Part shown: positions 9,538 to 30,791 of the stretch, in pieces | How the letters are laid out: the number at the start of each line of letters is the position of its first letter | Position numbering within the stretch: the stretch's first letter is position 1 | Origin: Candidatus Omnitrophota bacterium | Lineage (GTDB): Bacteria; Omnitrophota; Gorgyraeia; Zapsychrales; Zapsychraceae | DNA: 64,000 nucleotides | Direction: 5' to 3' | NCBI GenBank assembly: GCA_050250375.1 | Contig: JBFWOS010000002.1 | Span: 773,149 to 837,148 of the forward strand | The notes under the pieces: generated by a model | The model's input: only the letters and a program-made list of their open reading frames with translations | Databases searched by the model: none | Told to the model about the DNA's origin: nothing | Program-made: the position numbers and the translations under genes

Positions 9538-11766
9538 TTATTCCTTTTTTAATGAAGACAATTCATTGATAATACTTCCGGCCCAGCGATACACGTTATT
9601 TTCCTTAATGCCTTCAAGCATCCGGTGCATGCGCTGCTGTTTTTCTTCGACCGGCATTTCAATGGCCAGGTTAATCGCGTCAGCGAATTCTTCGGTCGAA
9701 TACGGGTTGACGGAAATAGCGTCGGTTAATTCCCGAGAAGCGCCGGTAAAACAGCTGAGGATCAAGACCCCGTTTAAATCGGGTTTCGCCGTGACGAATT
9801 CTTTAGCCACCAGGTTCATACCGTCATGCAGGGAACTGACCACACAGACGTCAGCTAAGGCGTAAAACGGAAAAACCTCATCAATCGAAAAATAACGCTT
9901 TAAATAAATGATCGGATTCATCGCCCCGTTAGAGTGTTTCCAGTTAATCTTTTCAACCAGTTGATCAATCTGTCCGATCAGATCGTGATAATGTTTGATC
10001 AGCGTGCGGCTGGGCGCGCCCAACTGGATAAAAACAAATTTGTCTTTGTGCTGCGGATATTTTTCCAGAAACCGGTCAATGGCGTGCATACGTTCAATGA
10101 TCCCTTTGGTGTAATCAATCCGTTCAACCCCTAAAAAGATGATCTTGTCTTCCAGGTCATAATCTTTTTTTAATTGGGCGATCACTTCCGGAGTATTTTG
10201 GAATTTGGAAGGCATGAGCGGATCCACGCTGATCGGCAAGGCCCGGACAAAGGTCTCGTGGTTCGCCCGCACAACGCTGAATTTTTCTGAATCCACCCGT
10301 GATTCCAGGACACGGTTCGCTGTTTCCAGGAAATTATTGCAATGGAACTGGACGTGAAAACCGATCAGATCGCAGTTCAGCATCCCGTCCAGGATTTCTT
10401 TCTGGTAAGGACAGATCGAGAAAACTTCCGGGTTCGGCCAGGGGATATGCCAGAAAATCGCGATCATTGCATCAGGTCTTTTTTCTTTTATATATTTCGC
10501 CAAGAGGGTGAAATGATAATCCTGGATAAAAACGTAGGGTTTTTCCCTGGGCAATTCTTCCAGGATCGAATCGGCAAATTTTTTATTTACCTTTTTATAC
10601 ATCTGCCAGTCGGATTCCCGAAAGACCGGCCGGGTGTGGGTGATGTGGCATAAGGGCCACAATCCCTCATTTGAAAAACCGTAATAATATCCCTCCTCTT
10701 CCTCTTTGGATAACCAGACGCGTTTTAAAATGTACCGATTATCTTCCGGCGGAACACCTAACTTGTCCTTGGAGTTGACAAATTTTTTATCCGCATTTCC
10801 TGAACCCTGGGCGACCCAGGTTCCCCCGCACGCGCGCAGGATCGGGTCGAGCGCAGAGACAACACCGCTGGCCGGGCGGATGCATTGGATCTCCCCGCCC
10901 ACTTTGTCAACCACGTGCATATAAGGTTCACGGTTGGAGACGATGACCAGCGCGTTTTCGCCCATTTTGGCCTGGACAAGGTTGCTGAGTTTATCCTCGG
11001 TCCAGGCGTCTTCTTTTTGAAGGCGGGTCTGGGCTTCACGGGTTACCGTTTTTCGGGCGACGCGTAATTTTAAGGCCACCTGCTCGACTTCGCTGGCGAG
11101 TTTTCCCAACGCATCCCCGGCCACAAACGGCTGGAGTTTATCCGTCTCACCTTTCTGGAAACGATGGAACCAGACGGTCATTCGCTGGATCGGAAGAAAA
11201 AATGTCTGCCGGAGGATAACGGAAACAACAAGTATGATCAGGACCGTAAATATAATCAGACTGATGCAGATCCTTTTCCAAATCTCCATCAGCCGGGCAA
11301 ACACAAAGGATGTGTCGTTGATAATTTCAACGGCCCCCAGAATTTTGTGTCCATCGGTAATAGGCAGGATATAACTGTATAGTTTGAATTCAGCGAATTG
11401 TTTTAATGTTCCGCGGGACGTGTTGGACAGCAAAATTTCCCTGATGTAGGGAGTTTCGTTCTGGCGCCAATCAGCCAGCCATTGTGTGACCGCAAAGACT
11501 TCGCCTTCACTATTATAAATAATACATCCCTGCCGGCGTTCGCGATTCTGGAATTTCTCAACGAGATAGCGGGCGTCTGTATCATTGCGTGTCAGAAGGA
11601 TATTTTTGACGGATAGTTCCATTCCCTCCGCAACGGCCCTGGACTTCCGGTTTAGATCATCCAGCAACCGCTCTTCTTCGAACCTGACCTGGAAGAATCC
11701 GTAAGCGGAAAAAACAACCGTTGTGACAACTAAGATGGGGAAAATGAATAAAAAGAATTTTTTCAT
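9538..11766 (-). CDS. otsA: Trehalose-6-phosphate synthase (GT20) with an N-terminal two-TM periplasmic-sensor plus HAMP-like extension
   Basis: The first ~260 aa read TM1 (FLFIFPILVVTTVVFSAYGFF), a ~140-aa extracytoplasmic segment, TM2 (ISLIIFTVLIILVVSVIL), then a HAMP-like linker (...QPFVAGDALGKLASEVEQVALKL...). The C-terminal ~480 aa match OtsA (LVIVSNREPY..., IQDYHFTLLAKYI..., IFWHIPWPNPEVF..., DLIGFHVQFHCNNFL). The ORF is continuous over 742 aa. Confidence 0.8.
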   Translation of the reverse strand: MKKFFLFIFPILVVTTVVFSAYGFFQVRFEEERLLDDLNRKSRAVAEGMELSVKNILLTRNDTDARYLVEKFQNRERRQGCIIYNSEGEVFAVTQWLADWRQNETPYIREILLSNTSRGTLKQFAEFKLYSYILPITDGHKILGAVEIINDTSFVFARLMEIWKRICISLIIFTVLIILVVSVILRQTFFLPIQRMTVWFHRFQKGETDKLQPFVAGDALGKLASEVEQVALKLRVARKTVTREAQTRLQKEDAWTEDKLSNLVQAKMGENALVIVSNREPYMHVVDKVGGEIQCIRPASGVVSALDPILRACGGTWVAQGSGNADKKFVNSKDKLGVPPEDNRYILKRVWLSKEEEEGYYYGFSNEGLWPLCHITHTRPVFRESDWQMYKKVNKKFADSILEELPREKPYVFIQDYHFTLLAKYIKEKRPDAMIAIFWHIPWPNPEVFSICPYQKEILDGMLNCDLIGFHVQFHCNNFLETANRVLESRVDSEKFSVVRANHETFVRALPISVDPLMPSKFQNTPEVIAQLKKDYDLEDKIIFLGVERIDYTKGIIERMHAIDRFLEKYPQHKDKFVFIQLGAPSRTLIKHYHDLIGQIDQLVEKINWKHSNGAMNPIIYLKRYFSIDEVFPFYALADVCVVSSLHDGMNLVAKEFVTAKPDLNGVLILSCFTGASRELTDAISVNPYSTEEFADAINLAIEMPVEEKQQRMHRMLEGIKENNVYRWAGSIINELSSLKKE

Positions 11767-12614: not shown

Positions 12615-14393
12615 TTACGTCACAAGGAAAATGACTTTATGCCCTTTTTTAACGTGCAGTTTTTCGTCCATGGTATAAATCTTGAGTTCCTTTTTTTCGC
12701 TAATGGTAAAAAGAACGATGGCATCCTTTCCGTATTTAGCAAAAAACGTGCTTTCATTGAGGTCTTCCGGCGCGGTGATGGTCCTGAGCACATCGCTGCG
12801 GTTGAAACGTTCAGCCAGCTTATCGTAACTGGACTCTTTGTTAAAAAGATATCGTCCTCTTAATGACGGCGGAATGATGAGCGCCTGTGTCTGATTTTTT
12901 TGTCCTGGGAAAAGCTGGTACACTTCCGACCGCCCGAAGATGTCCCGAAAATGAAGGACGGCCAGTGAATTCGCTTCGTCATTGGCCGTCAGGGTGATCA
13001 GCCGGCCGATCCCGTCAAAGTCAATCGTCTCTTCGATATCCTGGTTCAATATATTGTCTTCATAACCCTGCAGGCCTTCCTCATGAACCAGGGCGACATT
13101 GATGGCATTGGTATCAATTAAGACGACCTTGATCCCTTCGTCATTTAAATATTTGGCGATGAGACGGGCCCACCGGTGAGCGCCGAGAATAAGAACCCCT
13201 TGAGGATTGTCGCGCGCCAGTCCCAGTTTTTTCGCCACCCAGGAAGAGGTCATCCCGTAGATGACAACGGTGGCAATAATGACCAGGAATGTGATCGGTA
13301 CAAGTTGTTCGGCCTGTTCAACGCCTTTCAGGGACAACTCAAACGCGAAGATGGAAACGATGGCGGCGGCCACGATCCCTCTGGGGGCCATCCAGGAAAT
13401 AAACAATTTCTCACGAAACGTAAGTTCGCTGCGGGCCATTGAAATGAATACCGACAGCGGCCGGGCGATAAAAACCAGGACAAACAGGAAGACAAAAAAT
13501 TCCCAATTAAGGATATTGAGTTCATTTAAATTTAACCGCGCTGCCAGGATAATAAACAGCGTTGAAATGATCAGGATACCCAGATTCTCCTTAAAACTGA
13601 CGATATGCTGAACTTCCACCTTGCGCTGATTTCCTAAAACGATCCCCATGCTGATGACGGCAAACAGGCCGCTTTCATGATGGAAGAGATTCGAAAGGAT
13701 AAAAACAGTCACGACCAGCATCAGGGTCACCGTGCCGTGCAGATAATCCGGGATCCAGTATTTGCGTAATAACAGCAGCAAAAACCAGGCCCCGACCGCT
13801 CCGGTCACTGATCCGATGAGAATACTTTTCAGGAAAAACAAAAGCGCGTTAATGCTTAACGCCTGGCCGAGAATGATGTACTCGAATACAAGCACTGCCA
13901 GGGCGGCGCCGATGGGATCAATCACGATCCCTTCCCATTTGAGGATGCTGCCGGCTTTGCCCGACGGACGGACATGCCTTAAGAGTGGAATGATGACTGT
14001 TGGCCCGGTGACCACCAGGATCGCGCCCAGGAGAAAAGAAATATTAAAATTCAGGCCCAGGATGTAACGTGCGGACAGCGTGATGATAATCCAGTTCACA
14101 AAGGCGCCGATGCTGACCAGGTTAAACACTTCTTTCCCGATTTTCTTTAACTCATACAAACGCAGCCCCAGGCCGCCTTCAAATAATATAATAGCAACGG
14201 AAATGGACACCAGAGGAAGCAATAACGGCCCCAGGACTTCATCCGGCCGGATGAGTTGTGTCACGGGTCCTACCAGAAAACCCAATCCCAGCAGGAGAAC
14301 AATCGAAGGCCATTTGAATCGCCAGGCCAGCCATTGGGCGCCAATCCCGACCACAAAAATACTGGCAATTCCTATAAGTAAATATTGATCCAT
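12615..14393 (-). CDS. NhaP-type (CPA1) Na+/H+ antiporter with a C-terminal RCK/TrkA_N-like regulatory domain
   Basis: 12-13 TM helices. MDQYLLIGIASIFVVGIGAQWLAWRFKWPSIVLLLGLGFLVGP is typical of NhaP. The C-terminal VLILGAHRWARLIAKYLNDEGIKVVLIDTN resembles an RCK nucleotide-binding domain. Confidence 0.8.
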   Translation of the reverse strand: MDQYLLIGIASIFVVGIGAQWLAWRFKWPSIVLLLGLGFLVGPVTQLIRPDEVLGPLLLPLVSISVAIILFEGGLGLRLYELKKIGKEVFNLVSIGAFVNWIIITLSARYILGLNFNISFLLGAILVVTGPTVIIPLLRHVRPSGKAGSILKWEGIVIDPIGAALAVLVFEYIILGQALSINALLFFLKSILIGSVTGAVGAWFLLLLLRKYWIPDYLHGTVTLMLVVTVFILSNLFHHESGLFAVISMGIVLGNQRKVEVQHIVSFKENLGILIISTLFIILAARLNLNELNILNWEFFVFLFVLVFIARPLSVFISMARSELTFREKLFISWMAPRGIVAAAIVSIFAFELSLKGVEQAEQLVPITFLVIIATVVIYGMTSSWVAKKLGLARDNPQGVLILGAHRWARLIAKYLNDEGIKVVLIDTNAINVALVHEEGLQGYEDNILNQDIEETIDFDGIGRLITLTANDEANSLAVLHFRDIFGRSEVYQLFPGQKNQTQALIIPPSLRGRYLFNKESSYDKLAERFNRSDVLRTITAPEDLNESTFFAKYGKDAIVLFTISEKKELKIYTMDEKLHVKKGHKVIFLVT

Positions 14394-17865: not shown

Positions 17866-18135
17866 TTATTTATACGGGGTGACGCGCGGGTCACCTTTAA
17901 ACTGCAGGATTGAATATATTTTGGACGGATTGATGCACACGGTCGGGATCAGACTTTTATCCCATTCACTCCACGGTTTGATTTCTTCCTTGTCCCAATA
18001 AAGCAAATCGGTCAGGCAGACATATTCCCCGCGGGACGCCTTGCGGGTGAGCATGTCGAGCGTGTCGTTCGACGCGCCCACGTACGTGTAAATTTTATCA
18101 CTGCCGTCATCGGTTGTAATCTTGAACCAGTTCAT
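17866..18135 (-). CDS. Hypothetical small protein
   Basis: 89-aa ORF that packs tightly between neighbouring genes, with no recognisable domain. Confidence 0.3.
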   Translation of the reverse strand: MNWFKITTDDGSDKIYTYVGASNDTLDMLTRKASRGEYVCLTDLLYWDKEEIKPWSEWDKSLIPTVCINPSKIYSILQFKGDPRVTPYK

Positions 18136-18168: not shown

Positions 18169-19923
18169 TTACACATTTATTTTCGATAAATGGTATAACC
18201 CGACAAAAAAATTCCGCGCATTGGTTCCCAGCGTCTTGGTCCGGTAACCGCCTTCCTGCACGATCAGGGTGGGCAGATTGCTGCCGGCGATCATTGACCC
18301 GAGTTTTTTAAAATCATCTTTGCGCAGGGCCCAGGTCCCGGTCGGGTCATCCTTGGCGGTGTCCAGGCCGAGGGCAACGATCAGGTAGGTGGGGTCGTAT
18401 TTTTTGATCAAGGTTAAGGCTTTGCCCAGATGAATAAAATATTGTTCCGGGGTCAGGGCCTCGGGCAACGGGATATTTACATTAAATCCTTTCCCCTCGC
18501 CTTCCCCCTGTTCATCGGCAAAACCGGTAAAATACGGATACGAATATTTCGGATCGCCGTGAAGTGAAACGGTAAACACATCCTTTCGGGTATAAAAGAT
18601 ATCCTGCTGGCTGTTGCCGTGATGATAATCCACATCCAGGATGGCCACTTTGCCGTATTCACTCAGCTTATGAGCCGCCAGGGCGGAATTGGCGAAATAA
18701 CAAAATCCGCCGAAACTATTACGTTCCGCGTGATGGCCGGGCGGCCGCACGAGCGCGTAGGCAAACCGTTTCCCGCCGAGAATTTCTTCGGCGGCCGAGA
18801 GCACACAATTGACCCCTGAGCGCGCGGCCAGGTACGCGTTGGTATTTAATGGCGTAAACGTGTCGATGCAATAATATCCGGCGCGGACCGGCATCTCAAC
18901 CGGTTTACGGGATTTGTTGCGGATCGGGAAAATATAAGGGTAAATGGATTTATTGTTCGGGATGGATTCGCAGGCCTTTTTCAGGAACGCGAGGTAATCT
19001 TTATCATGGACCGTCTGGAGCACTTTATCCGGATAAACGAGGGATGATTTTTTGACCATAAAGTCCAGTTTTTCCAGTTCCCGGATAATTACTTTCAGCC
19101 GGACCGGGCTTTCCACATATCCGCGGTCATGGATGTGATGGATTTCGTGGCCTTCATTGGCAATATAGATGATTTTTTCTTTCGGCGTCAGGGATTCATT
19201 AATCTCAGGGGCCACCTTTTTTTGATACTTGGCCGGACGCAGATAAATATTGGCTCCGTCAAAGGATCGCAAAATCGTCCGGATATATTCTTCCGAACAC
19301 AAAAAGGAATAATTCCGCCCGAGGATGGCCCGCACCGCCGCCTTGAAAAAAGCGGTATCCGGGAATTCATTCCCTAATAAATCCAGCATCAGATACGGCG
19401 GATTGTTTCCGCCCTTTTTTAATGGTGTCTCGTAGGCCGACCCCAGGACCGGGTACACGCCGAATTTTTCATAAAAGGCCAGCGTCCGCGCGTGTTTTTT
19501 CTGGTCTTCCTTTTTGGGGGCCAGGGCGGGATCATCCGGCAGGCATTCAAAAAGCAAAGCCTTCACATCGAGGCGTTTGGCCTCTTCGCGGATCCGTTCA
19601 TACAAAGCGCCGCCGACGCCACGGTTTGTCTGGGCCACCCCGGCGGCCATAAAATCCAGAAAACAAAAATTAACATCCGGGATGTACAACAGTAAGGCAA
19701 ACCCCAGGATCGCCCCCTGTCCTCTTTCCGCGATAAAAAGCCTGGTCTGGTACTGATATTTTAAAGGGTTATCAATTTTGTCCGGGAGGATCTGCAATTC
19801 TTTTTCATTCAAAAATGAAAATTGCGACCGCATGATCGTCTGTACTTGAGCGATCAAATTCTTGTTGGCGGTGGTCGATGTATCCAGAATACGGCGGATG
19901 TGGAACATAACTGAGGACCTCAA
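18169..19923 (-). CDS. Fusion of an N-terminal GNAT acetyltransferase domain with a C-terminal histone-deacetylase-superfamily (AcuC/APAH-like) domain
   Basis: The N-terminal half carries GNAT motif A (AQTNRGVGGALYERIREEAKRLDV). The C-terminal half has HDAC hallmarks: RPPGHHAERN, ILDVDYHHGNSQQDIFY, VSLHGDP and EGGY. It is one continuous 584-aa ORF. Confidence 0.75.
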   Translation of the reverse strand: MRSSVMFHIRRILDTSTTANKNLIAQVQTIMRSQFSFLNEKELQILPDKIDNPLKYQYQTRLFIAERGQGAILGFALLLYIPDVNFCFLDFMAAGVAQTNRGVGGALYERIREEAKRLDVKALLFECLPDDPALAPKKEDQKKHARTLAFYEKFGVYPVLGSAYETPLKKGGNNPPYLMLDLLGNEFPDTAFFKAAVRAILGRNYSFLCSEEYIRTILRSFDGANIYLRPAKYQKKVAPEINESLTPKEKIIYIANEGHEIHHIHDRGYVESPVRLKVIIRELEKLDFMVKKSSLVYPDKVLQTVHDKDYLAFLKKACESIPNNKSIYPYIFPIRNKSRKPVEMPVRAGYYCIDTFTPLNTNAYLAARSGVNCVLSAAEEILGGKRFAYALVRPPGHHAERNSFGGFCYFANSALAAHKLSEYGKVAILDVDYHHGNSQQDIFYTRKDVFTVSLHGDPKYSYPYFTGFADEQGEGEGKGFNVNIPLPEALTPEQYFIHLGKALTLIKKYDPTYLIVALGLDTAKDDPTGTWALRKDDFKKLGSMIAGSNLPTLIVQEGGYRTKTLGTNARNFFVGLYHLSKINV

Positions 19924-19930
19924 AATGTTT

Positions 19931-19965
19931 AAGCAGAGACCAGATGCCGATCCTGGTCTCTGCTT
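19931..19965 (-). terminator. 13-bp perfect stem-loop (AAGCAGAGACCAG-N9-CTGGTCTCTGCTT), a candidate terminator after the DUF1579-like gene
   Basis: Read directly. The RNA-level hairpin sits between the end of the DUF1579-like gene (19986) and the start of the GNAT-HDAC gene (19923). On the minus strand it is followed by AAACAUUUUGAGG, a weak U tract. Confidence 0.4.
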
Positions 19966-21425: not shown

Positions 21426-23129
21426 TTACGAAGCCGTGACCTCGGGTACAGCCGGTATCTTTTTTTTCCAGTGAAAAATATCCCGGATAAAAATAACGGC
21501 GACCGCCACCAGGAGCAGTGCGATGCTCTTGTCCGCGACCTCCACCGCCATCTTTTCCGCGATCGAGGCGACGTCTGTGTTTCCGGTCAGGTTGACAAAA
21601 AAATGATAGACCTTCATGGTTCCCTGATAAATGGGCAAACCCGCCATAAAGGTGATAAAAGCGACCACAATGGAATTAAGGGTTCCGGACACAAACCCGG
21701 CCCACAAAAGTTTAAGCGGTTTGTGAAGGTCGATGAACCCCCATCTTAAAAAAAGCCAGGTCATGACGGCGATAAAAATGCTGCAGAACATCCACACCCA
21801 GTACGACGGTTCCCAAAATGTCCAGGACATAATCAGATTGTAAATGATGCCGGTCAGGATCCCGGCCCGCAAACCTCCAAGCACAACGGCCAGCGAGGTC
21901 CCCAAGGTATCCATAAAAAACGGCCAGCCCAGGACCGTCATCAGGACCGAACCAGAATAGTTCAGCATGGACATGGCAATGATCAGCAACCCCGTCCTCT
22001 GCCGGAAATAATTTTCCGCCAGTTCCTGGGCCCAGAATTCCGTTTTTAATTTCGGCGGTTCCATGTTATCGAACAGCCCTCCGTCATCCGGGGTGTTGGC
22101 GCTCACCAGTTTGCCGATGAGGGCGGATACATACATAACTCCGATGATCACCTGCACGATGACAATCGCGCGCGACAAAGATGACACTGCGGTAAAACCG
22201 CTGAACCCGGTGGAACTCATGGAAACAAAACTGAAATAAAAAAATGCAGTCATTTTCGGTGACGTCTCGCCTTCCGGCATGGAGATTGATCCGGGCGCGA
22301 ACGCCTCGAGCAGCGCGTAGATCACGCCGAACGTCATCCCGATCATTATATAGACGCTGATGGCGCCGAACAGTTCATTGATCTTGACCTTTTTGACGGC
22401 CAGGACATGCATAAGGATCATGGATAACGTGTAAATAAGAAATATAACCAGAAAGACCATCTCCGCCACCATGATCTGCTGGTCCTGGATAAACATGTTG
22501 CTCCAGGCCGTGACCAAAGTCGGGATCACCAGGAGCACCCCTCCGGCCACGTGCCGGATGTTATAACTGACGGCGTAGATCCCGGACAGCAGGACAAACG
22601 AAAAAAACAGGAGATAAATGACGGCCGTCGAATTGGCCTCGAAGAAAGGAAGAGCGACAATAAAGACGATCAAGGCTGTCAGTAAAGACAGGCATTTATT
22701 GTTCTTAAGCGTTTCGGCCATCCGTGGAAAATAGGCGGACTTAACTTCTTTCTGGTCAAAGGCGGTCACCGCCTCCTGTTCGGAACCAAAGACTTTCAAT
22801 TTTTCCTGTTCATGAAAGATATCAAAGTAAGCTTTCAAACTTTCCGGCGGATTGATCAGGCCGATCTTCTGGTCTTTCTGCTGCATTTCCATCAGTAGGA
22901 CGGCGACTGTTGAACTGTCAATTTCCCGCACGTTTTTCCCATCCAGGATGAGATGTTTTTTCGGCAGTCCGGCCTTTTGCATTTTTTCCCTGAATTCCAG
23001 GATTTGAGGAAGGGTCGCATGGTTGATATCCCCCCGGAATTTCAGGATCCGGGCGTAATCCAGTTCAATCCATCCGTCCAGATGGGACGGGTAAGGAATA
23101 TTGTGGTATTTAAGAAAATCGTGGATCAT
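21426..23129 (-). CDS. Three-part membrane protein: N-terminal STAS domain, an ion-channel pore domain (Ion_trans_2-like, filter STGFSG), and a C-terminal ECF-S-component-like membrane domain
   Basis: aa 1-125 read LILDGKNVREIDSSTVAVLLMEMQQKDQKIGLINPPESLKAYF (STAS/SpoIIAA-like). aa ~130-340 form TM-pore-TM, with AFFYFSFVSMSSTGFSGF resembling the K-channel signature (TVGYG → TGFSG). aa ~340-567 are 5-6 TM, with DTLGTSLAVVLGGLRAGILTG resembling the ECF S-component motif (TLQTxAVLLAGxLLG). Confidence 0.65.
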   Translation of the reverse strand: MIHDFLKYHNIPYPSHLDGWIELDYARILKFRGDINHATLPQILEFREKMQKAGLPKKHLILDGKNVREIDSSTVAVLLMEMQQKDQKIGLINPPESLKAYFDIFHEQEKLKVFGSEQEAVTAFDQKEVKSAYFPRMAETLKNNKCLSLLTALIVFIVALPFFEANSTAVIYLLFFSFVLLSGIYAVSYNIRHVAGGVLLVIPTLVTAWSNMFIQDQQIMVAEMVFLVIFLIYTLSMILMHVLAVKKVKINELFGAISVYIMIGMTFGVIYALLEAFAPGSISMPEGETSPKMTAFFYFSFVSMSSTGFSGFTAVSSLSRAIVIVQVIIGVMYVSALIGKLVSANTPDDGGLFDNMEPPKLKTEFWAQELAENYFRQRTGLLIIAMSMLNYSGSVLMTVLGWPFFMDTLGTSLAVVLGGLRAGILTGIIYNLIMSWTFWEPSYWVWMFCSIFIAVMTWLFLRWGFIDLHKPLKLLWAGFVSGTLNSIVVAFITFMAGLPIYQGTMKVYHFFVNLTGNTDVASIAEKMAVEVADKSIALLLVAVAVIFIRDIFHWKKKIPAVPEVTAS

Positions 23130-23276: not shown

Positions 23277-26200
23277 TTAATCAACAATCATGACGGCACC
23301 CATAAGAGGTCCGAAGACCCAGTGCGGCGGGGCTTCCTCGGAGTCGGTGTTACCGGAATTAATCGAAGAAAAAGATTTGATATTATTGCTGGAGGTCTGC
23401 GAGTCCTGGACATCCAGGAAATAAGTTGATTGTATCCCGGAGACAACGTCAAACGTAAACCGGGTCCCGGCCATCGATGACCTTAAATACAACGGAATGA
23501 CATCGCTGAACCCTTGAAGATTCAGAGTGTTGTTTATTGTGACGGTTGAACTCTTTCCAAACGACAATGTTCTGGAAGGTCCCGATGAAAGTTGTTTGGA
23601 GAAATCATAAAATGTTTCTGAAGAATTCACGTTTTGGTCTGCACCATCCATCACTACATTTCCCGAATGCGGATCAAAGATCCCCCCATTATTATTCCAG
23701 TCCCCGGATACAGTGATCGGCTCGTTTGCGCCCGTATCCAGTTCCCCCGCGTTTAGAAATAATGTGCCGTTAATATCTAAAGCATCCTGGATTGTGTAAA
23801 TTGCCAGTGCCGTGGAGGGTTGTTCACCGTTCGCCAGGCGCTGGATTTCAGGAACACTGAGCACACGATTGTAAATCCGGAAATCATCAATCAAGCCGTC
23901 CCAGCCGGCTGCCGCATCTTTGCCCCCCTGTCCGATCCGTAGTTCAGTCGCCCCGGTCATTGTCCCGGACAAAGCCGCATCAGAATAAGTCGGCGTATCA
24001 AGATTTCCGTCTATATACAGCCGGATCGGGTTCCCGCTGCTCCAGGTCAAAGCCAGATGCTGCCAGTTGGTCGTCTGGACAAAACTGGCGCTTTCGTATT
24101 GGCGATTGACGCCGCTGACCTGTAAACCGCATTTAATGACATTTGTTCCGCCGCCGCTTGCGCCGGATAAATCATAACGAAGTGTAAAAATATTGTCTCC
24201 CCCGTTGGGTGGTTCACCGTTGAAGAACCCGTCGTCCACTCCGGTCGCGTCTGCTTTTACCCACAATGATACGGTAAATTCTGACAAACCATTGATATAA
24301 TTTTCTGCGTCGCTATCAATAATGTAATCCGTGGTCCCGTCAAATTGAAGGCTGGCCGGGTTATCAAAGTGGATCATCGCAGATGTCCCTGTATTGGGCG
24401 TTGTATTATTGACATAAATCATATCCCTTTGGAATCCGCTGCTGCCGTAAGCGGTCGTCCCGGTTGTTTCATCCATTTTCCAGTACGCGATCAGGCCGTC
24501 GTTGATGATCAGATGATGGAATGAACTCGTCCCCGATGTAATTGTCTGCGGATTCGTGGAAATAAATAAGACCGTCGAATCGGCGTTGGTAAATGTACCG
24601 CCGGTCATATCCCAGGAACCATCGACGATGATGGTTGAATTGCCGGCCGTCCCGGCGGTCGCATCCAGTGTGGAATCCAAATCAACGAGTCCGTTGATGG
24701 TCAAGTCATATCCATCGGTCTGAAATACACCGGCTAAAACCTCGAAATCACTGCCGAGGATCTCATCAGCCCCCATCATAAATGTTCCCCCCAAACCGTT
24801 AATGCGCAAGAACTGATACGTCCAGTCCTGAATGACGTGTGTGCCGGATGTCGCGGTATACTCGGCTCCGGAACCCGGATTAAAGACAGGTCCCGAATCC
24901 AGGGTAATGGTCTGGCTCCCGGCCAGCTGCAGAAGACCGTCCACCGTGATCGTTGACCCGGCATTGGTGGTAAAATCATACACGCCCCAGTCAAAGGTCG
25001 CCCCCGCGTCGATCGTGATCGTCCCATCGACAACCAGTCCGCTGGCCAGGATCACTTCGGCGGATGTATTGGAAATCTGTAAATCCCCGATCGATCCTCC
25101 GCCGGAGGTCAGCGTTTGGGTGACCGTGCCATCGGCGATCAGGAGAATGTCGTCTTCAATACTGCCGGCCCCGGATTTGTTGATGTCTCCGGAAACCGTG
25201 ATGGTGTGAATCTCGGTCCCGTCGGCCAGAAGATCGCTCCCTGAAGCATTACTCATGGACAGGTCCTGCTGGACGAGCAGGTCATCACTGACATGGATGT
25301 CATTGGCCGAAGTGCCGGCAAACCCTAAATTATAAAAGGTTGTCGGTCCGGTTATTGTAACCGGGTTGGCGGTGCTGTTAAACGTAACCGTCCCGTTGCG
25401 CGCGATAAATGTGTCTGCGTTGATCCAATTCCCGAATATAAAAGATGAATAATTATTCGTCGCATGGGAATCGAGCGTGCCATCCAGTAACGAAAGCGTC
25501 CCTCCTACGGTAAAGGTCCCGCCCAGTTCAATTGTATAATCCGCCCCGCCGTCCGCGTCATCAATCACAACATTATAAAAGGTGGACGATCCTAACGCGA
25601 CGGTCACTGTACCGGCTGTCCCGTCAAACGTAACGGTCGAAGTGCCGGGATCAAATGTCCCCAAACTGCTGGCGATCCAGTCACCGCTTACTGTCATGAG
25701 AACCTGGTTAGTTCCCGCATCCAACTCACCATCCGAAATATTAATGTTTCCGTTTATATCCTGGTCATATTGAAGAATAACATTGTCACTGCCCGGAACA
25801 CCGGTATTAAAAACAGCAAAGTTTTCAAACGGCTGGTTCAGATTATCGACCATCTGGTCTGAAGTTCCGTTAAAGGTTACGGTACTGCCGGTTTCATTAA
25901 ATGTACCGCTGCTTGAATTCCAATCCCCGGAAACAGTCATCGTTCCGGTCAATGTTAAGGTTCCGCCCAGATTAAAATGGTGGGTGACAATTCCTTCCGG
26001 AGAAACGGTAATGACGGAATTATTAGGAAGAATATTAAGCTCTTCATCGGTATAAGAACCGTCGGCATCGGCGATTAAGACGGTCCCGGACGTCACAAGA
26101 TACATAACGTCTTCGTCATCCGTGTTGTCATAGTGACCGATTTCAGTCAGAGTGAACGTCTGGTTGTCATCACTGCCGATGGTCAGGACATGCCGGTCAA

Positions 26201-29200
26201 GCACGACACCGCTGATATTCCCGGAGCCGTCATATTTGGTGACGCCTGAAGATTCATCGGCGGCAATGATATCTCCGTCTCCGTCTTCGGCCCACATGGT
26301 CAGACGATCACCGATTAAAATCGGAGCGTTATTAATCGTCCAGGCTCCGCTGGAAACGACGCCGGTCATGCCGACACATAAATTACCGTTGACCGCCAGA
26401 GCCACGATGGTGTTGTCGACCAGGTCAGACGTGCCCGATATATCAACCGTGGCGGCAGTATAACTGATGACCAGACGGCCGTTATTCCCGGCTGTCCCGG
26501 CGCCTGATGTAGCGCCGCCGGTTCCCCCTTGCCCCGCATTGCCGGCGTAATCCGTGTCGGTGTTATTCCCGGCGGCAGTACCGCTGCCGTCGGAGGTCGA
26601 GGTGGCCGTTCCGGAGACAAAAGATGAACCCCCTCCACCACCGCCGCCGCCGGCATTGCCCGCCTGCGACCCGCTGCCTCCGCCTCCACCGTAATAGCCG
26701 GACCCTCCTCCTCCTCCCGCACCGTAACCGCTGGCGTTGGCATCACCGGTCCCGCCGTCTCCGCCGTTGGTGGTCCCGCCGTTTCCGGCGGAACCGTCAG
26801 CGCCTTGTCCGGAACGTCCGTCCGCTCCTGCGCCGCCTGTATCCGCCGCGCCGGCTGAACCGCTGTTATTGCCGCCTGTTCCTCCGCTGCCTCCGGAGGA
26901 TTGGTCTGCTCCGCCGCCCCCTCCGGCATTGCCTGACGCGCTGCCGTTGACACCTGTTGTTCCGCCACCCGGACCGCCGGCTCCACCCGGGGTGGCTGAC
27001 GAATTGTCACCACCACCACCACCTCCTCCTCCAGCGGAGATAAGTAAAGGTGTGGATGCGCGAAAGACCGCTGTCCGCCCCCCTCCACCCGCGCCGTCCC
27101 CCGAAGCGTTTCCTGAACCGCCGGAACTGAATGCTCCTGCCCCGCCGGAGCCGCCGACATGGATATCTAATGTTTCCATGGGAGTAACCGCCAGGGTTGC
27201 CGTCGCAAAGGCCGCTCCGCTTCCGTCTCCACCGGTACCTACCGTCCCTCCACCCCCGCCGCCTCCGCCTCCGCCCCAGGCTTTAACGGTGATCTCCGTG
27301 ACACCTTTGGGCACCACAAACGTATCCGATCCGGCGACCGTAAAAACTTGTGTTCCAAAACCATCCGGTAGTGGAAAAATCCAGAATGGAGAAGCCGTTA
27401 AATCGTCATTTCCTCCGTCATTCACGGAGTTTCTTGCCGTGATGTCATTGTTCAAGGCGTTGGAGTTGGCCACTTTGACAAATTCAACAATCTGGTCCCC
27501 GCCCGTTACACTCAAGCTGAACTGTGTTGACCCGTCGATGCTGTCAAGTTCGACTTCATTATTGATTTCACCGACCAGATTCAGGCTTCCCGTTACGGTA
27601 AAGGTGGTCGATTGTTGAAACTCCATTTTGGCTGAAAGGGTGGTACTGACCAGGTCCGCCGTTGTGAACGATTCGGTAAATTGCACCCCGAACGCGGATG
27701 AATTCGTTACTTCGATAATATTATATGTTTCTGAATTGCTGGCGACCGTTTGTAATCCTGTCCCGTCAAATTCAACCGTTGAGCTGGTTACCGTAAACGT
27801 ATCAAGGTTGGCCAGGTCAAGATCACCCCCCAGAAAAACAGTGTCGTTACTGATGTTGAACGTCGTGGCCCCGCCGTTATTGACCGTAAGACTTCCGTTG
27901 ATATCCAGATCGTCCGCTGTGCTGAGAACTCCGCCGGTAACGGACGATCCGATTTGGATATTGTTAAACGCTCCGCCTGAACTGGTCAGCGATGATGTTC
28001 CGTCAAACACAACGGTCGAATTCGTATTGATAAAATTCCCCCCGGTCATATCCCAATCCCCGGACACATTAAGGGTGGAATTCCCATCGGCGCCGCTCTG
28101 CGCGTCCAATGTTCCGTTCAAGGTCAACCCGCCGTTGATGTCAACTTCATATCCGCCTGTGATTAGATTGTCACCTGTATCAATCGTCAAGGTGTTGCTT
28201 AAGAAGTCCGAGGACAAGTTTACGGCGTTATTGGGGGAACGGCTGATCAGAACATTCCCCAAATTTGTCCCGCCGTCCACGTTTAAATCCAGAATCCCGT
28301 CCAGCAGTACCGTTCCGGCGCCGGCTGTGAATGTACCGCCGGTCTTGATGATATTGCCGGCGATATTAATATCGGTGTTATTGGCGCCCAGATTGATCGT
28401 TCCGTCGTTCATGTTTAACGGCCCGTCAATGTCGATCAGGATTGAGGAGTTGGGGGTAATCGTTCCGGTGTATCCGGATTCGATCAGGATACCTCCGACA
28501 TTAAACGCGGCGTTGACAGTCGCGTTATTTGTACAGCTGTTGGAAAAAACGACATTATGGGTTGTATTCGGGACAGAGGCCCCACCGCCGACACCGCAGG
28601 AATTTTCAGAAGCCGACCAGTTGGCCGCAGAATTTGTATTCCCTCCGGCCGAACCGACCCAATACCGGTTGACGGCAAAGATCCAATGCGGTGAGGCTTC
28701 GGCGTTATCGTTCCCGCCGTTATTGTTCGAAGACAAGGCCGTAATATCGTTTGAAGAAGCTTGTGAATCCATGATATTTAAAAAACTGACCGTTTGGCTG
28801 GATCCGGTCACATCAAACGTGAACCTTACTCCAGAAGAATTGCTTTGAAGGACCAGACGGTCATCGTCATCCAGCCCCGTCAGATTTAAAGTATTGGTGA
28901 TGGTCTGGGTTGAGGAGGCGGCAATGGTCAGAGTGGTGTTTGAACTGTTGTCGGTGGATTCAATCTTGGTCAGATTGCGGAAGGTAGTTGATCCCGTAAT
29001 ACTCTGGTTATCGCCATCGAGGATGACCGTTGATACGCCGGATCCCGCAGCCAGGGAACCCGAAGCGCCCATCAGCCAGTTTCCCGCGAGATTTATGTTG
29101 ACGTTATTGGTTCCCGAATCAAGATTACCGTCTGTAATCGTCAGCGTTCCGTTGATGTCCAGGGCATCAGACAAAATAATGTCATCATTTCCGGATGACC

Positions 29201-30791
29201 CGGTATTATTCAACAGAATATTATAAAACGATTCTGTATCGCTGGTGATCGTCTGATCGCTTGTCCCGTTAAATGTGATCGTCCCGGTGCCGGCGTTTAG
29301 GGAACCTCCTGTAGAATCCCAGTTCCCTGTTAAATCCATTGTCCCGGTAATCGTGAGTGTTCCATCCAGATCGGCATGATGCGTGCGCACACCTTCCGGT
29401 GAACTCACCGTCACCGTATTACCGGATAAAATTCTTATTTGTTCATCCGAATAACTGTTTCCCGCATCGACAATCAGTACTGTCCCGCTGAAAAGAACAC
29501 TGTGCAGGACATCTTCATCATTGCTGTTACCATAAAGTCCGATTTCCGTGACGCTCAGATTCTGGTTGTCCGTGCTGCCGATGGACAAGACATGGCGGTT
29601 TAAAACCATACCGGTGATATTTCCGGAGCCGTCATACTGTGTAACGGCCGTTGCTTCATCGGCCGTGGCTATATCCCCGTCGCCGTCTTCCGCCCAAACG
29701 GTAATAACCTCATTGGATGTGATCGGAACATCTGCGATCGTCCAGGCCCCGGCTGAGACCGTTCCGGTTAACGCCGTAAAGCGGACCCCGTTAACCGCGA
29801 TCTTAACCAAAGTTCCATCCGCTAAATCCGATGTCCCGGAAATATCCGCCGATGTATAGGAGATAACTAAACGCCCCGGATTTCCGGAGGTTCCGGAAGA
29901 CGATGACGCTCCGCCGGTTCCGCCCTGCCCGGCACTGCCGGCATAATCCGCGTCGCCGTTATTACCTGCCGATGTTCCTGAACCGGCTGTTGTTGATGTT
30001 GAAGACCCGGTTAATAAGGAAGAACCGCCGCCACCGCCGCCACCGCCGGCATTACTCGCCAACGAACCGCTTCCGCCGCCACCGCCAAACCTTCCTGCTC
30101 CACCTCCGCCTCCTCCGCCATAACCATTCGCGTTTGCGTCACCGTTACCACCGGAGGCGCCTCCAATCGTACCGCCGTTTCCCTTCGAACCATCCGCTCC
30201 CTGTCCGCTTCGACCGTCGGCCCCGGCGCCACCGCTCAAGGCTGCCCCGGCCGTGCCTGTATTATTTCCACCTGTGCCTGCGGCCCCGCCGGCCACCGTT
30301 GTTCCGCCGCCACCGCCACCCGAACTGCCAGACGCGCTGCCGGCTGTCCCTGATGAACCGCCTCCCGGTCCGCCATTTCCGCCAGGTGTTACTGAAGAGT
30401 TATCACCGCCTCCACCGCCTCCGCCTCCGGGCGCAATGAGTAACTGAGTCCCGCCGCGCGCTACACCCGAACGGCCCCCCCCACCGCCACCGTCTCCGGA
30501 ATTTGCACCTGAGCCGCCGGTACTAAAATCCCCTTGACCACCGCCGCCTCCCACTGTGATCGTGAGCGACTCCGCCGGTGTGACGACAAGCGTTGCTCCT
30601 GAAAAACCTGCCCCGCCGCCGCTCCCTCCTGTACTGGATGCGTTAGTCCCGCCGCCACCGCCGCCACCGCCTCCTCCCCAAGCTTTAACGCTGACCGAAG
30701 TTACACCTTGGGGTACACTCCAGGAAGAGGACCCTGCTGAATTAAATACAACCTGGGCCGCCCCGGCCGGAGCCGTCCACAGGCCCATCAA
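23277..30791 (-). CDS. Giant (2,504 aa) glycine-rich, beta-helical-repeat surface/adhesin-like protein with a LamG (concanavalin A-like lectin) domain
   Basis: One continuous ORF with a TTG/ATG start at 30791/30788. It has two Gly-rich domains. The first is QVVFNSAGSSSWSVPQGVTSVSVKAWGGGGGGGGGG..., and its counterpart is TQVFTVAGSDTFVVPKGVTEITVKAWGGGGGGGGGG.... Long runs of parallel-beta-helix-type repeats (…GDWxxxGGTF…STVxFxGTSDQ…) follow. A LamG domain (aa ~2101-2323, nt ~23823-24491) ends in GLIDDFRIYNRVLSVPEIQRLANGE. Three module ends share SP[HF]W[IV]F. No classical signal peptide is evident at the N-terminus. Confidence 0.85.
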   Translation of the reverse strand: MMGLWTAPAGAAQVVFNSAGSSSWSVPQGVTSVSVKAWGGGGGGGGGGTNASSTGGSGGGAGFSGATLVVTPAESLTITVGGGGGQGDFSTGGSGANSGDGGGGGGRSGVARGGTQLLIAPGGGGGGGGDNSSVTPGGNGGPGGGSSGTAGSASGSSGGGGGGTTVAGGAAGTGGNNTGTAGAALSGGAGADGRSGQGADGSKGNGGTIGGASGGNGDANANGYGGGGGGGAGRFGGGGGSGSLASNAGGGGGGGGSSLLTGSSTSTTAGSGTSAGNNGDADYAGSAGQGGTGGASSSSGTSGNPGRLVISYTSADISGTSDLADGTLVKIAVNGVRFTALTGTVSAGAWTIADVPITSNEVITVWAEDGDGDIATADEATAVTQYDGSGNITGMVLNRHVLSIGSTDNQNLSVTEIGLYGNSNDEDVLHSVLFSGTVLIVDAGNSYSDEQIRILSGNTVTVSSPEGVRTHHADLDGTLTITGTMDLTGNWDSTGGSLNAGTGTITFNGTSDQTITSDTESFYNILLNNTGSSGNDDIILSDALDINGTLTITDGNLDSGTNNVNINLAGNWLMGASGSLAAGSGVSTVILDGDNQSITGSTTFRNLTKIESTDNSSNTTLTIAASSTQTITNTLNLTGLDDDDRLVLQSNSSGVRFTFDVTGSSQTVSFLNIMDSQASSNDITALSSNNNGGNDNAEASPHWIFAVNRYWVGSAGGNTNSAANWSASENSCGVGGGASVPNTTHNVVFSNSCTNNATVNAAFNVGGILIESGYTGTITPNSSILIDIDGPLNMNDGTINLGANNTDINIAGNIIKTGGTFTAGAGTVLLDGILDLNVDGGTNLGNVLISRSPNNAVNLSSDFLSNTLTIDTGDNLITGGYEVDINGGLTLNGTLDAQSGADGNSTLNVSGDWDMTGGNFINTNSTVVFDGTSSLTSSGGAFNNIQIGSSVTGGVLSTADDLDINGSLTVNNGGATTFNISNDTVFLGGDLDLANLDTFTVTSSTVEFDGTGLQTVASNSETYNIIEVTNSSAFGVQFTESFTTADLVSTTLSAKMEFQQSTTFTVTGSLNLVGEINNEVELDSIDGSTQFSLSVTGGDQIVEFVKVANSNALNNDITARNSVNDGGNDDLTASPFWIFPLPDGFGTQVFTVAGSDTFVVPKGVTEITVKAWGGGGGGGGGGTVGTGGDGSGAAFATATLAVTPMETLDIHVGGSGGAGAFSSGGSGNASGDGAGGGGRTAVFRASTPLLISAGGGGGGGGDNSSATPGGAGGPGGGTTGVNGSASGNAGGGGGADQSSGGSGGTGGNNSGSAGAADTGGAGADGRSGQGADGSAGNGGTTNGGDGGTGDANASGYGAGGGGGSGYYGGGGGSGSQAGNAGGGGGGGGSSFVSGTATSTSDGSGTAAGNNTDTDYAGNAGQGGTGGATSGAGTAGNNGRLVISYTAATVDISGTSDLVDNTIVALAVNGNLCVGMTGVVSSGAWTINNAPILIGDRLTMWAEDGDGDIIAADESSGVTKYDGSGNISGVVLDRHVLTIGSDDNQTFTLTEIGHYDNTDDEDVMYLVTSGTVLIADADGSYTDEELNILPNNSVITVSPEGIVTHHFNLGGTLTLTGTMTVSGDWNSSSGTFNETGSTVTFNGTSDQMVDNLNQPFENFAVFNTGVPGSDNVILQYDQDINGNINISDGELDAGTNQVLMTVSGDWIASSLGTFDPGTSTVTFDGTAGTVTVALGSSTFYNVVIDDADGGADYTIELGGTFTVGGTLSLLDGTLDSHATNNYSSFIFGNWINADTFIARNGTVTFNSTANPVTITGPTTFYNLGFAGTSANDIHVSDDLLVQQDLSMSNASGSDLLADGTEIHTITVSGDINKSGAGSIEDDILLIADGTVTQTLTSGGGSIGDLQISNTSAEVILASGLVVDGTITIDAGATFDWGVYDFTTNAGSTITVDGLLQLAGSQTITLDSGPVFNPGSGAEYTATSGTHVIQDWTYQFLRINGLGGTFMMGADEILGSDFEVLAGVFQTDGYDLTINGLVDLDSTLDATAGTAGNSTIIVDGSWDMTGGTFTNADSTVLFISTNPQTITSGTSSFHHLIINDGLIAYWKMDETTGTTAYGSSGFQRDMIYVNNTTPNTGTSAMIHFDNPASLQFDGTTDYIIDSDAENYINGLSEFTVSLWVKADATGVDDGFFNGEPPNGGDNIFTLRYDLSGASGGGTNVIKCGLQVSGVNRQYESASFVQTTNWQHLALTWSSGNPIRLYIDGNLDTPTYSDAALSGTMTGATELRIGQGGKDAAAGWDGLIDDFRIYNRVLSVPEIQRLANGEQPSTALAIYTIQDALDINGTLFLNAGELDTGANEPITVSGDWNNNGGIFDPHSGNVVMDGADQNVNSSETFYDFSKQLSSGPSRTLSFGKSSTVTINNTLNLQGFSDVIPLYLRSSMAGTRFTFDVVSGIQSTYFLDVQDSQTSSNNIKSFSSINSGNTDSEEAPPHWVFGPLMGAVMIVD
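23280..27374 (-). repeat. Copy 2 (aa 1140-2504) of the intragenic tandem duplication; it carries the LamG insertion
   Basis: Homologous to copy 1 over its length, and ~226 aa longer. The extra length is accounted for by the LamG domain at nt ~23823-24491. Boundaries are approximate. Confidence 0.55.
27375..30791 (-). repeat. Copy 1 (aa 1-1139) of the ~3.4 kb intragenic tandem duplication in the giant gene
   Basis: V35 of VKAWGGGG maps to nt 30687-30689 and its homolog V1169 to nt 27285-27287, an offset of 1,134 aa (3,402 nt). The protein segments align (e.g. AEDGDGDIATADEATAVTQYDGSGNITGMVLNRHVL vs AEDGDGDIIAADESSGVTKYDGSGNISGVVLDRHVL). Nucleotide identity is ~70%. Boundaries are approximate. 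Confidence 0.6.

Follow-up and report, generated by a model that had tools for sequence, protein, structure and literature searches.

The 64,000-nucleotide stretch of Candidatus Omnitrophota DNA analysed here (contig JBFWOS010000002.1, positions 773,149 to 837,148; hereafter the window) carries on its reverse strand a gene for a single protein in which an N-terminal GNAT-fold domain, here called GNAT1, is joined to a complete zinc-dependent deacetylase of the acetylpolyamine amidohydrolase (APAH) type. The fusion is a widespread uncharacterised family rather than a singular oddity, and in many relatives its gene lies in a cassette with an aminomutase, two ligases and a second GNAT protein. These conserved partners point to a small cationic metabolite derived from beta-lysine that is acetylated and deacetylated, and not to a protein-lysine switch. 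The explanation that we favour overall, with roughly even confidence, is that the protein is a two-domain enzyme from the family of this beta-lysine-type small-molecule cassette, and that the copy in the window acts as a stand-alone amidohydrolase.

The fusion gene and its family

The gene and the main parts of its product are located as follows.

18169-19908, reverse strand: coding sequence of the GNAT1-deacetylase fusion (579 residues plus stop codon), with a product identical to database protein P0001
19918-19921, reverse strand: Shine-Dalgarno-like GAGG seen in the sequence, 9 nucleotides 5' of the ATG at 19908
19369-19908, reverse strand: GNAT1 core, residues 1-180, with the full GNAT beta/alpha topology (PF00583, models, Foldseek, profile matches in the PDB)
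19177-19368, reverse strand: two-helix extension (residues 185-217) and low-confidence linker (residues about 218-244), from model secondary structure and pLDDT; the least conserved part in the family
18172-19176, reverse strand: complete APAH-type zinc deacetylase, residues 245-579 (PF00850, alignment with APAHs, top sequence and fold matches in the PDB)

P0001 stems from a Candidatus Omnitrophota metagenome-assembled genome (MAG), on a contig of 1,006,043 bp. The open reading frame (ORF; 18169-19923, reverse strand) is uninterrupted, and would encode 584 residues if begun at an in-frame upstream TTG, as in the ORF list. The ATG at 19908 is a likelier start than this TTG at 19923, since its product equals P0001, homologues begin with MF(R/H)IRRIL, and the GAGG lies 9 nucleotides upstream. 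There is neither a stop codon nor a frameshift between the two domains, and every one of the best 120 database homologues matches about 98% of the length of the fusion protein.

A first-pass annotation of the window, made from its letters alone, had described a GNAT domain and a complete HDAC-type deacetylase in one polypeptide. This is confirmed by Pfam (PF00583 above its cut-off, PF00850 with an E-value of 1.3e-70), by structural modelling and by Foldseek. The two results that it had named as refuting are not observed: the GNAT hidden Markov model (HMM) scores above its threshold, and homologues span the unbroken ORF in full. As the source is a MAG, one might consider an artefact, i.e. an assembly chimera or a functionless fused pseudogene. 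The same full-length architecture is however present in hundreds of independent genomes, including those of the cultured Dasania marina, Desulfuromonas versatilis and Rhodovulum marinum, and the intact ORF retains all catalytic residues, by which this explanation is effectively refuted and its probability becomes negligible.

The fusion had also been called unusual, which does not hold: it was found in at least 595 species-representative genomes from more than 12 phyla (one genome per species scanned), and annotation pipelines already recognise it, those of JGI labelling such proteins 'AcuC-like deacetylase/GNAT'. Matches that span both domains in full length come from Gammaproteobacteria (Woeseia, Nitrococcus, Dasania), Alphaproteobacteria (Rhodovulum, Methyloceanibacter), Desulfobacterota, Bacteroidota, Planctomycetota, Chloroflexota (Dehalococcoidia), Spirochaetota, Acidobacteriota, Synergistota, Myxococcota and others, and many of the host taxa are marine or saline. 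A search of 1.84 billion representatives with the GNAT1 profile alone gave 157 clusters at 50% identity (E<=1e-30), many of the matches being gene fragments. The best 120 homologues fall into two size classes of about 580 and about 755 residues, the longer forms having a third, canonical GNAT domain (55-73 bits) at their C-terminus.

Gene clusters in related genomes

The cassette consists of a KamA-type lysine 2,3-aminomutase (LAM), two Ddl-like ATP-grasp ligases (AG1 and AG2), the GNAT1-deacetylase fusion and a second GNAT (GNAT2). Desulfuromonas versatilis, Dasania marina and one MAG of Oligoflexia each have a tight operon with these partners, in which the KamA-family aminomutase is a radical-SAM enzyme and GNAT2 is a small GNAT. 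In the closest three-domain relative of the window protein (from an Omnitrophica MAG, 63% identity), the same set is condensed into three genes, encoding the aminomutase, a fused double ATP-grasp protein and a GNAT1-deacetylase-GNAT2 protein. Of the 77 loci compared, from species-representative genomes, all four partners are adjacent in 31 and some of them are present in 12, most of which lie at the end of a contig; clear orphans, having a flank of 5 kb or more on either side, number 17, and a further 17 could not be judged. About two thirds of the evaluable loci carry the fusion in the cassette.

Gene fusions in the database reflect the same linkage, as they join each adjacent pair of the cassette: KamA with ATP-grasp (proteins of about 780-820 residues), ATP-grasp with ATP-grasp, a double ATP-grasp with a GNAT (944 residues), ATP-grasp with GNAT1, and deacetylase with GNAT2. 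The KamA/ATP-grasp, double ATP-grasp/GNAT and ATP-grasp/GNAT1 types are represented by database proteins P0212, P0218, P0219, P0221, P0229, P0231, P0193 and P0267.

The cassette aminomutase most resembles lysine 2,3-aminomutase (426 bits against 2a5h) and retains both Asp residues (Asp293/Asp330) that bind the epsilon-ammonium group of lysine. GNAT2 and the third domain of the 755-residue forms are homologues (35-39% identity, with E-values of about 1e-31 to 1e-35); GNAT1 is only remotely related to GNAT2. The nearest solved homologue of GNAT2 (E 6e-32) is the structural-genomics protein Dde_3044 from Desulfovibrio alaskensis G20 (PDB 2r7h), labelled 'putative D-alanine N-acetyltransferase', which provides a ready structural handle on the cassette pathway; a literature search on the Desulfovibrio locus tags around Dde_3044 returned nothing relevant.

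In relatives the gene is accompanied by a LAM-like enzyme, by two ATP-grasp ligases and by a further GNAT, which indicates small-molecule amine chemistry. We infer that the substrate of the family would be a small cationic N-acetyl-amine derived from beta-lysine, and regard the KamA / double ATP-grasp / GNAT1-deacetylase / GNAT2 cassette as the ancestral as well as the usual setting. GNAT1 has the fold of an acyl-CoA-type N-acyltransferase and a short helical connection to a complete zinc amidohydrolase. Acetylation of an amino group by a GNAT may mask this group during the activation of carboxylates and the formation of amide bonds by the ATP-grasp enzymes; alternatively, acetylation could serve to make a solute of the N-acetyl-beta-lysine type. 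The APAH-like tunnel would later strip the acetyl group, and the fusion would hold both steps of the pathway on one scaffold.

In its most specific form, this proposal gives the fusion an acetyl protect-and-deprotect (or editing) role in an undescribed pathway that would be widespread, occurring in over a dozen phyla, and would convert lysine to an amide or peptide containing beta-lysine (a new solute or polyamine-like compound), with both domains active on the same small-molecule scaffold and with the orphans as salvage enzymes left after loss of the pathway. We put this forward tentatively, as a possibility held at clearly less than even confidence.

The C-terminal deacetylase domain

The elements of the deacetylase active site are encoded at these positions.

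18844-18948, reverse strand: L2 loop, equivalent of the 'polyamine-specificity loop', residues 321-355, SIYPYIFPIRN...GYYCIDTFTPLN, highly conserved
18730-18747, reverse strand: RPPGHH motif with the tandem catalytic histidines, residues 388-393 (H392/H393 invariant; context VRPPGHHAE)
18613-18636, reverse strand: DVDYHHGN with zinc ligands D427 and H429, residues 425-432; invariant in the family alignment A1 (59 members), aligned with DVDFHHGN of APAHs
18337-18369, reverse strand: GLDTAKDDPTG with the third zinc ligand D516, residues 514-524; contains PTG in place of the 'PIS' of APAHs
18244-18255, reverse strand: EGGY motif with catalytic tyrosine Y555, residues 552-555; invariant as QEGGY

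The deacetylase is recognised by PF00850 (Hist_deacetyl) over residues 270-573 with 238.5 bits, against a cut-off of 27.9. Residues 246-571 can be aligned with residues 1-339 of a stand-alone Pseudomonas APAH of 344 residues at 35% identity. The best sequence matches are solved APAHs, over the whole APAH chain (33-36% identity, E 9e-70 to 6e-59), compared with E 4e-51 for HDAC6 and about 1e-29 to 1e-32 for AcuC-like HDLP and PA3774-type entries. The tandem histidines, the Asp-His-Asp zinc ligands (D427/H429/D516) and the catalytic tyrosine are intact, and invariant in the family. The motifs quoted in the first-pass annotation (PPGHHAE, DVDYHHGNSQQ, SLHGD, EGGY and a glycine-rich motif A) are indeed all present, and the deacetylase motifs align with catalytic and zinc-binding residues of APAHs.

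Graf et al. have listed as features of the cluster-4 polyamine deacetylases the RPPGHH and EGGY motifs, the extended L2 loop, the PIS motif, the N-terminal L1 beta-hairpin lid, a head-to-head dimer and acetylpolyamine deacetylase activity (PMC11532494). The L2 loop is kept in the window protein and is 2 residues shorter than in APAH; its R330, the equivalent of Arg95 of PsApaH, is invariant. The partner residue Asp163 of the Arg95-Asp163 dimer salt bridge has no conservation in the fusion family. By these comparisons the domain would act in the manner of an APAH and has APAH as its closest relative. It forms a distinct subfamily, and we do not class it as a bona fide polyamine deacetylase.

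The first-pass annotation had compared the fusion with the Bacillus AcuA/AcuC system, and had suggested a switchable acetylation module. A protein-lysine writer and eraser of this kind, toggling a target such as acetyl-CoA synthetase, could be seen in the best fold matches of GNAT1, which include the protein acetyltransferases Gcn5, PCAF and RimI, and in the finding that cluster-4 PsApaH also deacetylates peptides and AcsA in vitro (PMC11532494). The deacetylase half is nevertheless of the APAH type and not of the AcuC type, with 239 bits to PsApaH versus about 104-116 bits to AcuC-like HDLP and 5li3, and its top 16 fold matches are all APAHs (TM 0.78-0.84). NCBIfam gives no AcuA or AcuC assignment, and neither acs nor another obvious protein target is found in the window or in related loci, where the conserved partners are small-molecule enzymes. 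With an APAH-type deacetylase and no linked protein target, a protein switch is very improbable, and we rank it below the two other alternatives considered further on, namely a sensing GNAT1 and a self-contained polyamine enzyme. Thus, the domain architecture of the earlier interpretation stands, while the rarity of the fusion, its AcuA/AcuC likeness and its role as a protein switch are not sustained.

The N-terminal GNAT domain

Three segments of GNAT1 are of particular importance for its function.

19600-19629, reverse strand: motif A pyrophosphate-binding loop, residues 94-103, TNRGVGGALY (alignments; profile alignment to QRQGLG of RimI)
19522-19548, reverse strand: end of strand b5 and start of an insertion, ECLPDDPAL (alignments); E121 is the equivalent of RimI Glu103
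19459-19512, reverse strand: helix a4 / motif B, residues 133-150, KEDQKKHARTLAFYEKFG; Y146 is invariant and the equivalent of RimI Tyr115

At the level of HMMs, the GNAT assignment is marginal: PF00583 gives 25.4 bits for residues 54-132 against a gathering cut-off of 20.7, PF13508 stays under its cut-off (19.1 against 27 bits), and an NCBIfam scan of the fusion protein returned no family at all, even at E<=10. In relatives, GNAT1 likewise scores 21-28 bits with PF00583. Because this HMM evidence is thin, the fold was tested by modelling. An AlphaFold model of residues 1-240, built on the family alignment (pLDDT 91, pTM 0.88), has the topology b1-a1-a2-b2-b3-b4-a3-b5-a4-b6-b7, which is the canonical GNAT order with two extra helices. 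A Foldseek search of the PDB with this model gave 491 matches at E<=1e-3, of which the best 50 are all GNAT-fold acetyltransferases, led by Gcn5 (E 4e-9, TM 0.77 on the target), PCAF, AAC(6')-Ii and RimI at 12-18% identity. The GNAT1 sequence profile has weak matches among PDB sequences, nearly all of them GNATs. The model and the fold matches support the GNAT assignment independently of the HMMs.

The conservation of GNAT1 was followed in A1 and in a separate set of 56 members from fetched loci; a profile alignment with E. coli RimI (query identical to PDB 5isv) was used to relate positions to a known enzyme. In motif A, G97 and G99 are invariant and map to the motif-A glycines of RimI, and the first position is Thr instead of Q/R. 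E121, C122, L123, P124 and D125 are invariant in the family, and between b5 and a4 there is a family-specific insertion of 13 residues, CLPDDPxLSPDxx, with invariant first residues; such an acidic insertion (ECLPDDP) beside the acceptor site would fit a cationic acceptor. Glu103 and Tyr115 of RimI are its proposed base and acid. Their equivalents E121 and Y146 are invariant, as are the motif-A glycines, in both A1 and the 56-member set. Of the 180 positions in GNAT1, 58 show a conservation of 90% or more in A1, which argues for a working ligand-binding or catalytic domain and against a relic.

The window protein retains every family-invariant residue, including the catalytic Glu and Tyr equivalents, but differs at 20 positions with a conservation of 85% or more. 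At position 95 it has Asn where the family has Gly, and in helix a4 it alone has K138, H139 and T142 in place of the Q, N and R of the family. Among the 55 other members R142 is found in 55 and N139 in 53, the latter position aligning with RimI Asn108. G95N, N139H and R142T thus affect near-invariant positions of the CoA site, and CoA binding by this GNAT1 is possibly altered, perhaps weakened. A global relaxation of GNAT1 in the lineage of the window protein was also considered and gave a negative result, the GNAT1/deacetylase identity ratio being 0.79 compared with a family median of 0.82. As overall divergence is not excessive, we claim altered CoA-site residues and not decay of the domain.

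These substitutions bear on an alternative in which the deacetylase is the sole catalyst, and GNAT1 is a non-catalytic sensor of acetyl-CoA, CoA or substrate, or an oligomerisation domain, that gates the APAH-type site; it could, for example, replace the shortened L1 lid and so tie deacetylation to the cellular acetyl-CoA level. Consistent with this are the weak GNAT HMM scores throughout the family, an L1 lid 6 residues shorter than in stand-alone APAHs, the three changed CoA-site residues of the window copy, and the constant presence of canonical GNAT2 in the operon or fused C-terminally, by which an acetyltransferase is already supplied. The invariance of E121, Y146 and the motif-A glycines, together with the invariant acidic insertion at the acceptor site, is on the other hand the pattern expected of a working transferase. 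For the family as a whole we consider a sensing GNAT1 unlikely. For the window copy specifically, a GNAT domain turned to a binding or regulatory role, as the first-pass annotation had also suggested, is somewhat favoured because of the CoA-site substitutions.

Probable loss of the cassette partners

The window protein, with 63% identity to P0002, is a clear orthologue of cassette members. A tblastn search of the 64-kb window with all cassette partner proteins gave chance matches only (E>=0.04) and no aminomutase. With the double ATP-grasp protein of the nearest relative as query, no protein from the 1,006,043-bp contig was among the best 120 database matches, a genome scan not being made; identities in this search drop from 73% and 62% straight to 46%. 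The partners are thus probably absent, at least from that contig.

Family tree analysis (neighbour-joining) shows that orphans are polyphyletic, being scattered among clustered members, which suggests that the orphan status is derived, by secondary loss of partners. In this tree the window protein falls beside one further orphan and one three-domain form that is clustered; the outgroup to them is a clustered form. Such a loss is also suggested by two loci, L003 and L004, in each of which a DUF8436/FAD-dependent gene (L003 759-2348, L004 4406-6052) lies upstream of the fusion gene. After it come LAM, AG1, AG2 and a three-domain fusion in L003, and unrelated genes and an orphan two-domain fusion in L004, as if the partners and the GNAT2 domain had been deleted. 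With its partners missing in this genome, the window protein would most probably work alone, its main activity being that of an N-acetyl-amine amidohydrolase on substrates resembling acetyl-beta-lysine or acetylpolyamines.

Arguments against the proposed beta-lysine pathway

Several observations weigh against the proposed beta-lysine function. About a third of the evaluable loci have no partners nearby, so that the fusion may have a self-sufficient role unrelated to beta-lysine. The best NCBIfam model for the cassette aminomutase is AblA, but its 471-483 bits are below the equivalog cut-off of 525; the AblB model is matched by neither GNAT1 nor GNAT2, the latter matching RimI-like models only, and weakly. 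No osmotic or lysine riboswitch was detected upstream of the clusters in a riboswitch and RNA scan of nine cluster loci. In the deacetylase, the PIS gatekeeper motif is replaced by invariant P522, T523 and G524 (PTG), and the L1 lid segment, which can be aligned but lacks 6 residues relative to stand-alone APAHs, has low model confidence at residues 261-267; through these two changes substrate access may differ from that of polyamine deacetylases. The full-length model has a pTM of 0.60, with an uncertain mutual orientation of the two domains, and the absence of partners elsewhere in the genome is based on the best 120 matches. Finally, our literature search for the fusion architecture or the operon found no paper describing either, including in the supplements of the 2024 deacylase survey.

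Some of the same data could be accommodated by a self-contained role in polyamine homeostasis, in which GNAT1 acetylates polyamines in the manner of SpeG or SSAT, the APAH domain deacetylates them, and both are reciprocally regulated, with no need for a beta-lysine cassette. The deacetylase half is nearest to proven polyamine deacetylases (activities in PMC11532494), the acidic residues of GNAT1 fit polycationic acceptors, and many loci, the window among them, are orphans that share no other conserved neighbour (none was found on searching the 17 orphan loci). Such an arrangement would however be a futile cycle hydrolysing acetyl-CoA unless strictly regulated. Moreover, most evaluable loci lie in the LAM/ATP-grasp cassette, with gene fusions to the partners, and the polyphyletic orphans derive from clustered forms. 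The altered PIS motif and L1 loop count against it as well, and the profile matches of GNAT1 in the PDB include no SpeG or SSAT, being weak matches to Gcn5, aminoglycoside and other acetyltransferases only. We regard polyamine homeostasis as a rather improbable role, and prefer the explanation by a beta-lysine-type cassette.

Comparison with known systems

With the APAHs of Pseudomonas (PsApaH, 9gkz), Marinobacter (msAPAH, 6phr) and Mycoplana ramosa (3q9b), the window protein shares the RPPGHH motif, the Asp-His-Asp zinc site, EGGY, the YPYF segment and the L2 loop. It differs from them by its 245 N-terminal residues of GNAT and linker, the shorter L1 lid, the change of PIS to PTG and the non-conserved Asp163 partner, and the genomic context of its family is a beta-lysine/ATP-grasp cassette instead of polyamine catabolism. 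Compared with GNATs of the RimI/Gcn5 type, GNAT1 has the same fold, a glycine-rich acetyl-CoA pyrophosphate loop, a Glu at the end of b5 and Asn...Tyr in a4, but at 12-18% identity, and with a 13-residue acidic insertion, two additional C-terminal helices and a covalently attached deacetylase.

A route from lysine to N-epsilon-acetyl-beta-lysine via a LAM and a GNAT is established as the AblA/AblB osmolyte route (PMC3543383, PMC9337991). The cassette likewise pairs a KamA-family aminomutase (best match AblA) with a GNAT, but adds two ATP-grasp ligases and a deacetylase; the window has no aminomutase at all. The Bacillus AcuA/AcuC/AcsA switch also combines a GNAT-fold protein with a classical zinc deacetylase; AcuC, however, belongs to the class-I-like cluster 2c (PMC11532494), while the fusion has an APAH-like deacetylase, no gene for an AcsA target, and biosynthetic enzymes as conserved partners.

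Two other systems, of different enzyme families, offer a mechanistic analogy only. Ngg is a bifunctional protein with a GNAT and a RimK-like ATP-grasp domain, which makes the acetylated dipeptide osmolyte NAGGN, and thus combines N-acetylation with formation of an amide bond by ATP-grasp chemistry. In arginine biosynthesis, ArgA and the M20 deacetylase ArgE follow an N-acetyl 'protecting-group' logic, with acetylation and later deacetylation.

Flanking sequences

The neighbours of the fusion gene in the window are unrelated to it: a Na+/H+ exchanger with TrkA-N domain, an SRPBCC protein, a MORN protein, a GST, a DUF1579 protein and a STAS-domain ion-channel protein. Ion-homeostasis genes flank the region on both sides, i.e. 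the Na+/H+ exchanger with TrkA-N (12615-14393, reverse strand) and the STAS-domain ion-channel protein (21426-23129, reverse strand). An ORF of 89 residues (17866-18135, reverse strand) begins 33 nucleotides past the stop codon of the fusion gene, has an AAGGAG ribosome-binding site, and is not separated from it by a terminator; it is probably co-transcribed with the fusion gene, and has no match in Pfam or PADLOC. The fusion protein itself has no match in the PADLOC defence library.

A perfect 11-bp hairpin (19933-19963; GCAGAGACCAG ... CTGGTCTCTGC, loop of 9 nucleotides) separates the stop codon of the DUF1579 gene from the start of the fusion gene. It was considered as a terminator between the upstream gene and the fusion gene; a consensus scan made no such call, because the tail is poor in T. 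A riboswitch and RNA scan of the whole window found none upstream of the fusion gene. A giant ORF (23277-30791, reverse strand) encodes 2504 residues; it has long low-complexity stretches rich in Gly and two halves that nearly duplicate each other, and its C-terminal part is LamG-like. The GC content rises to 0.57 within it, at 26-28 kb. In the locus of the Omnitrophica relative (L006), a c-di-GMP-I riboswitch (11659-11738) precedes pilin-like (N_methyl) genes and a tmRNA gene is found at 754-1143, neither having a connection to the cassette.

Biological significance

The fusion defines a large family in which the linkage of the two domains is apparently obligate, and which has no characterised member, even though both domains come from well-known enzyme classes. 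The gene linkage and the fusions among cassette members point to an unrecognised beta-lysine-based pathway that would be common in marine, sediment and anaerobic bacteria, cultured strains included. If this is true, the family would bring 'writer' and 'eraser' chemistry together on one polypeptide for metabolites, and not for regulation of proteins. For the Omnitrophota genome itself the meaning is more modest, namely an orphan APAH-like amidohydrolase with a GNAT domain that is possibly impaired, and the main interest therefore lies in the family and its cassette rather than in the copy in the window.

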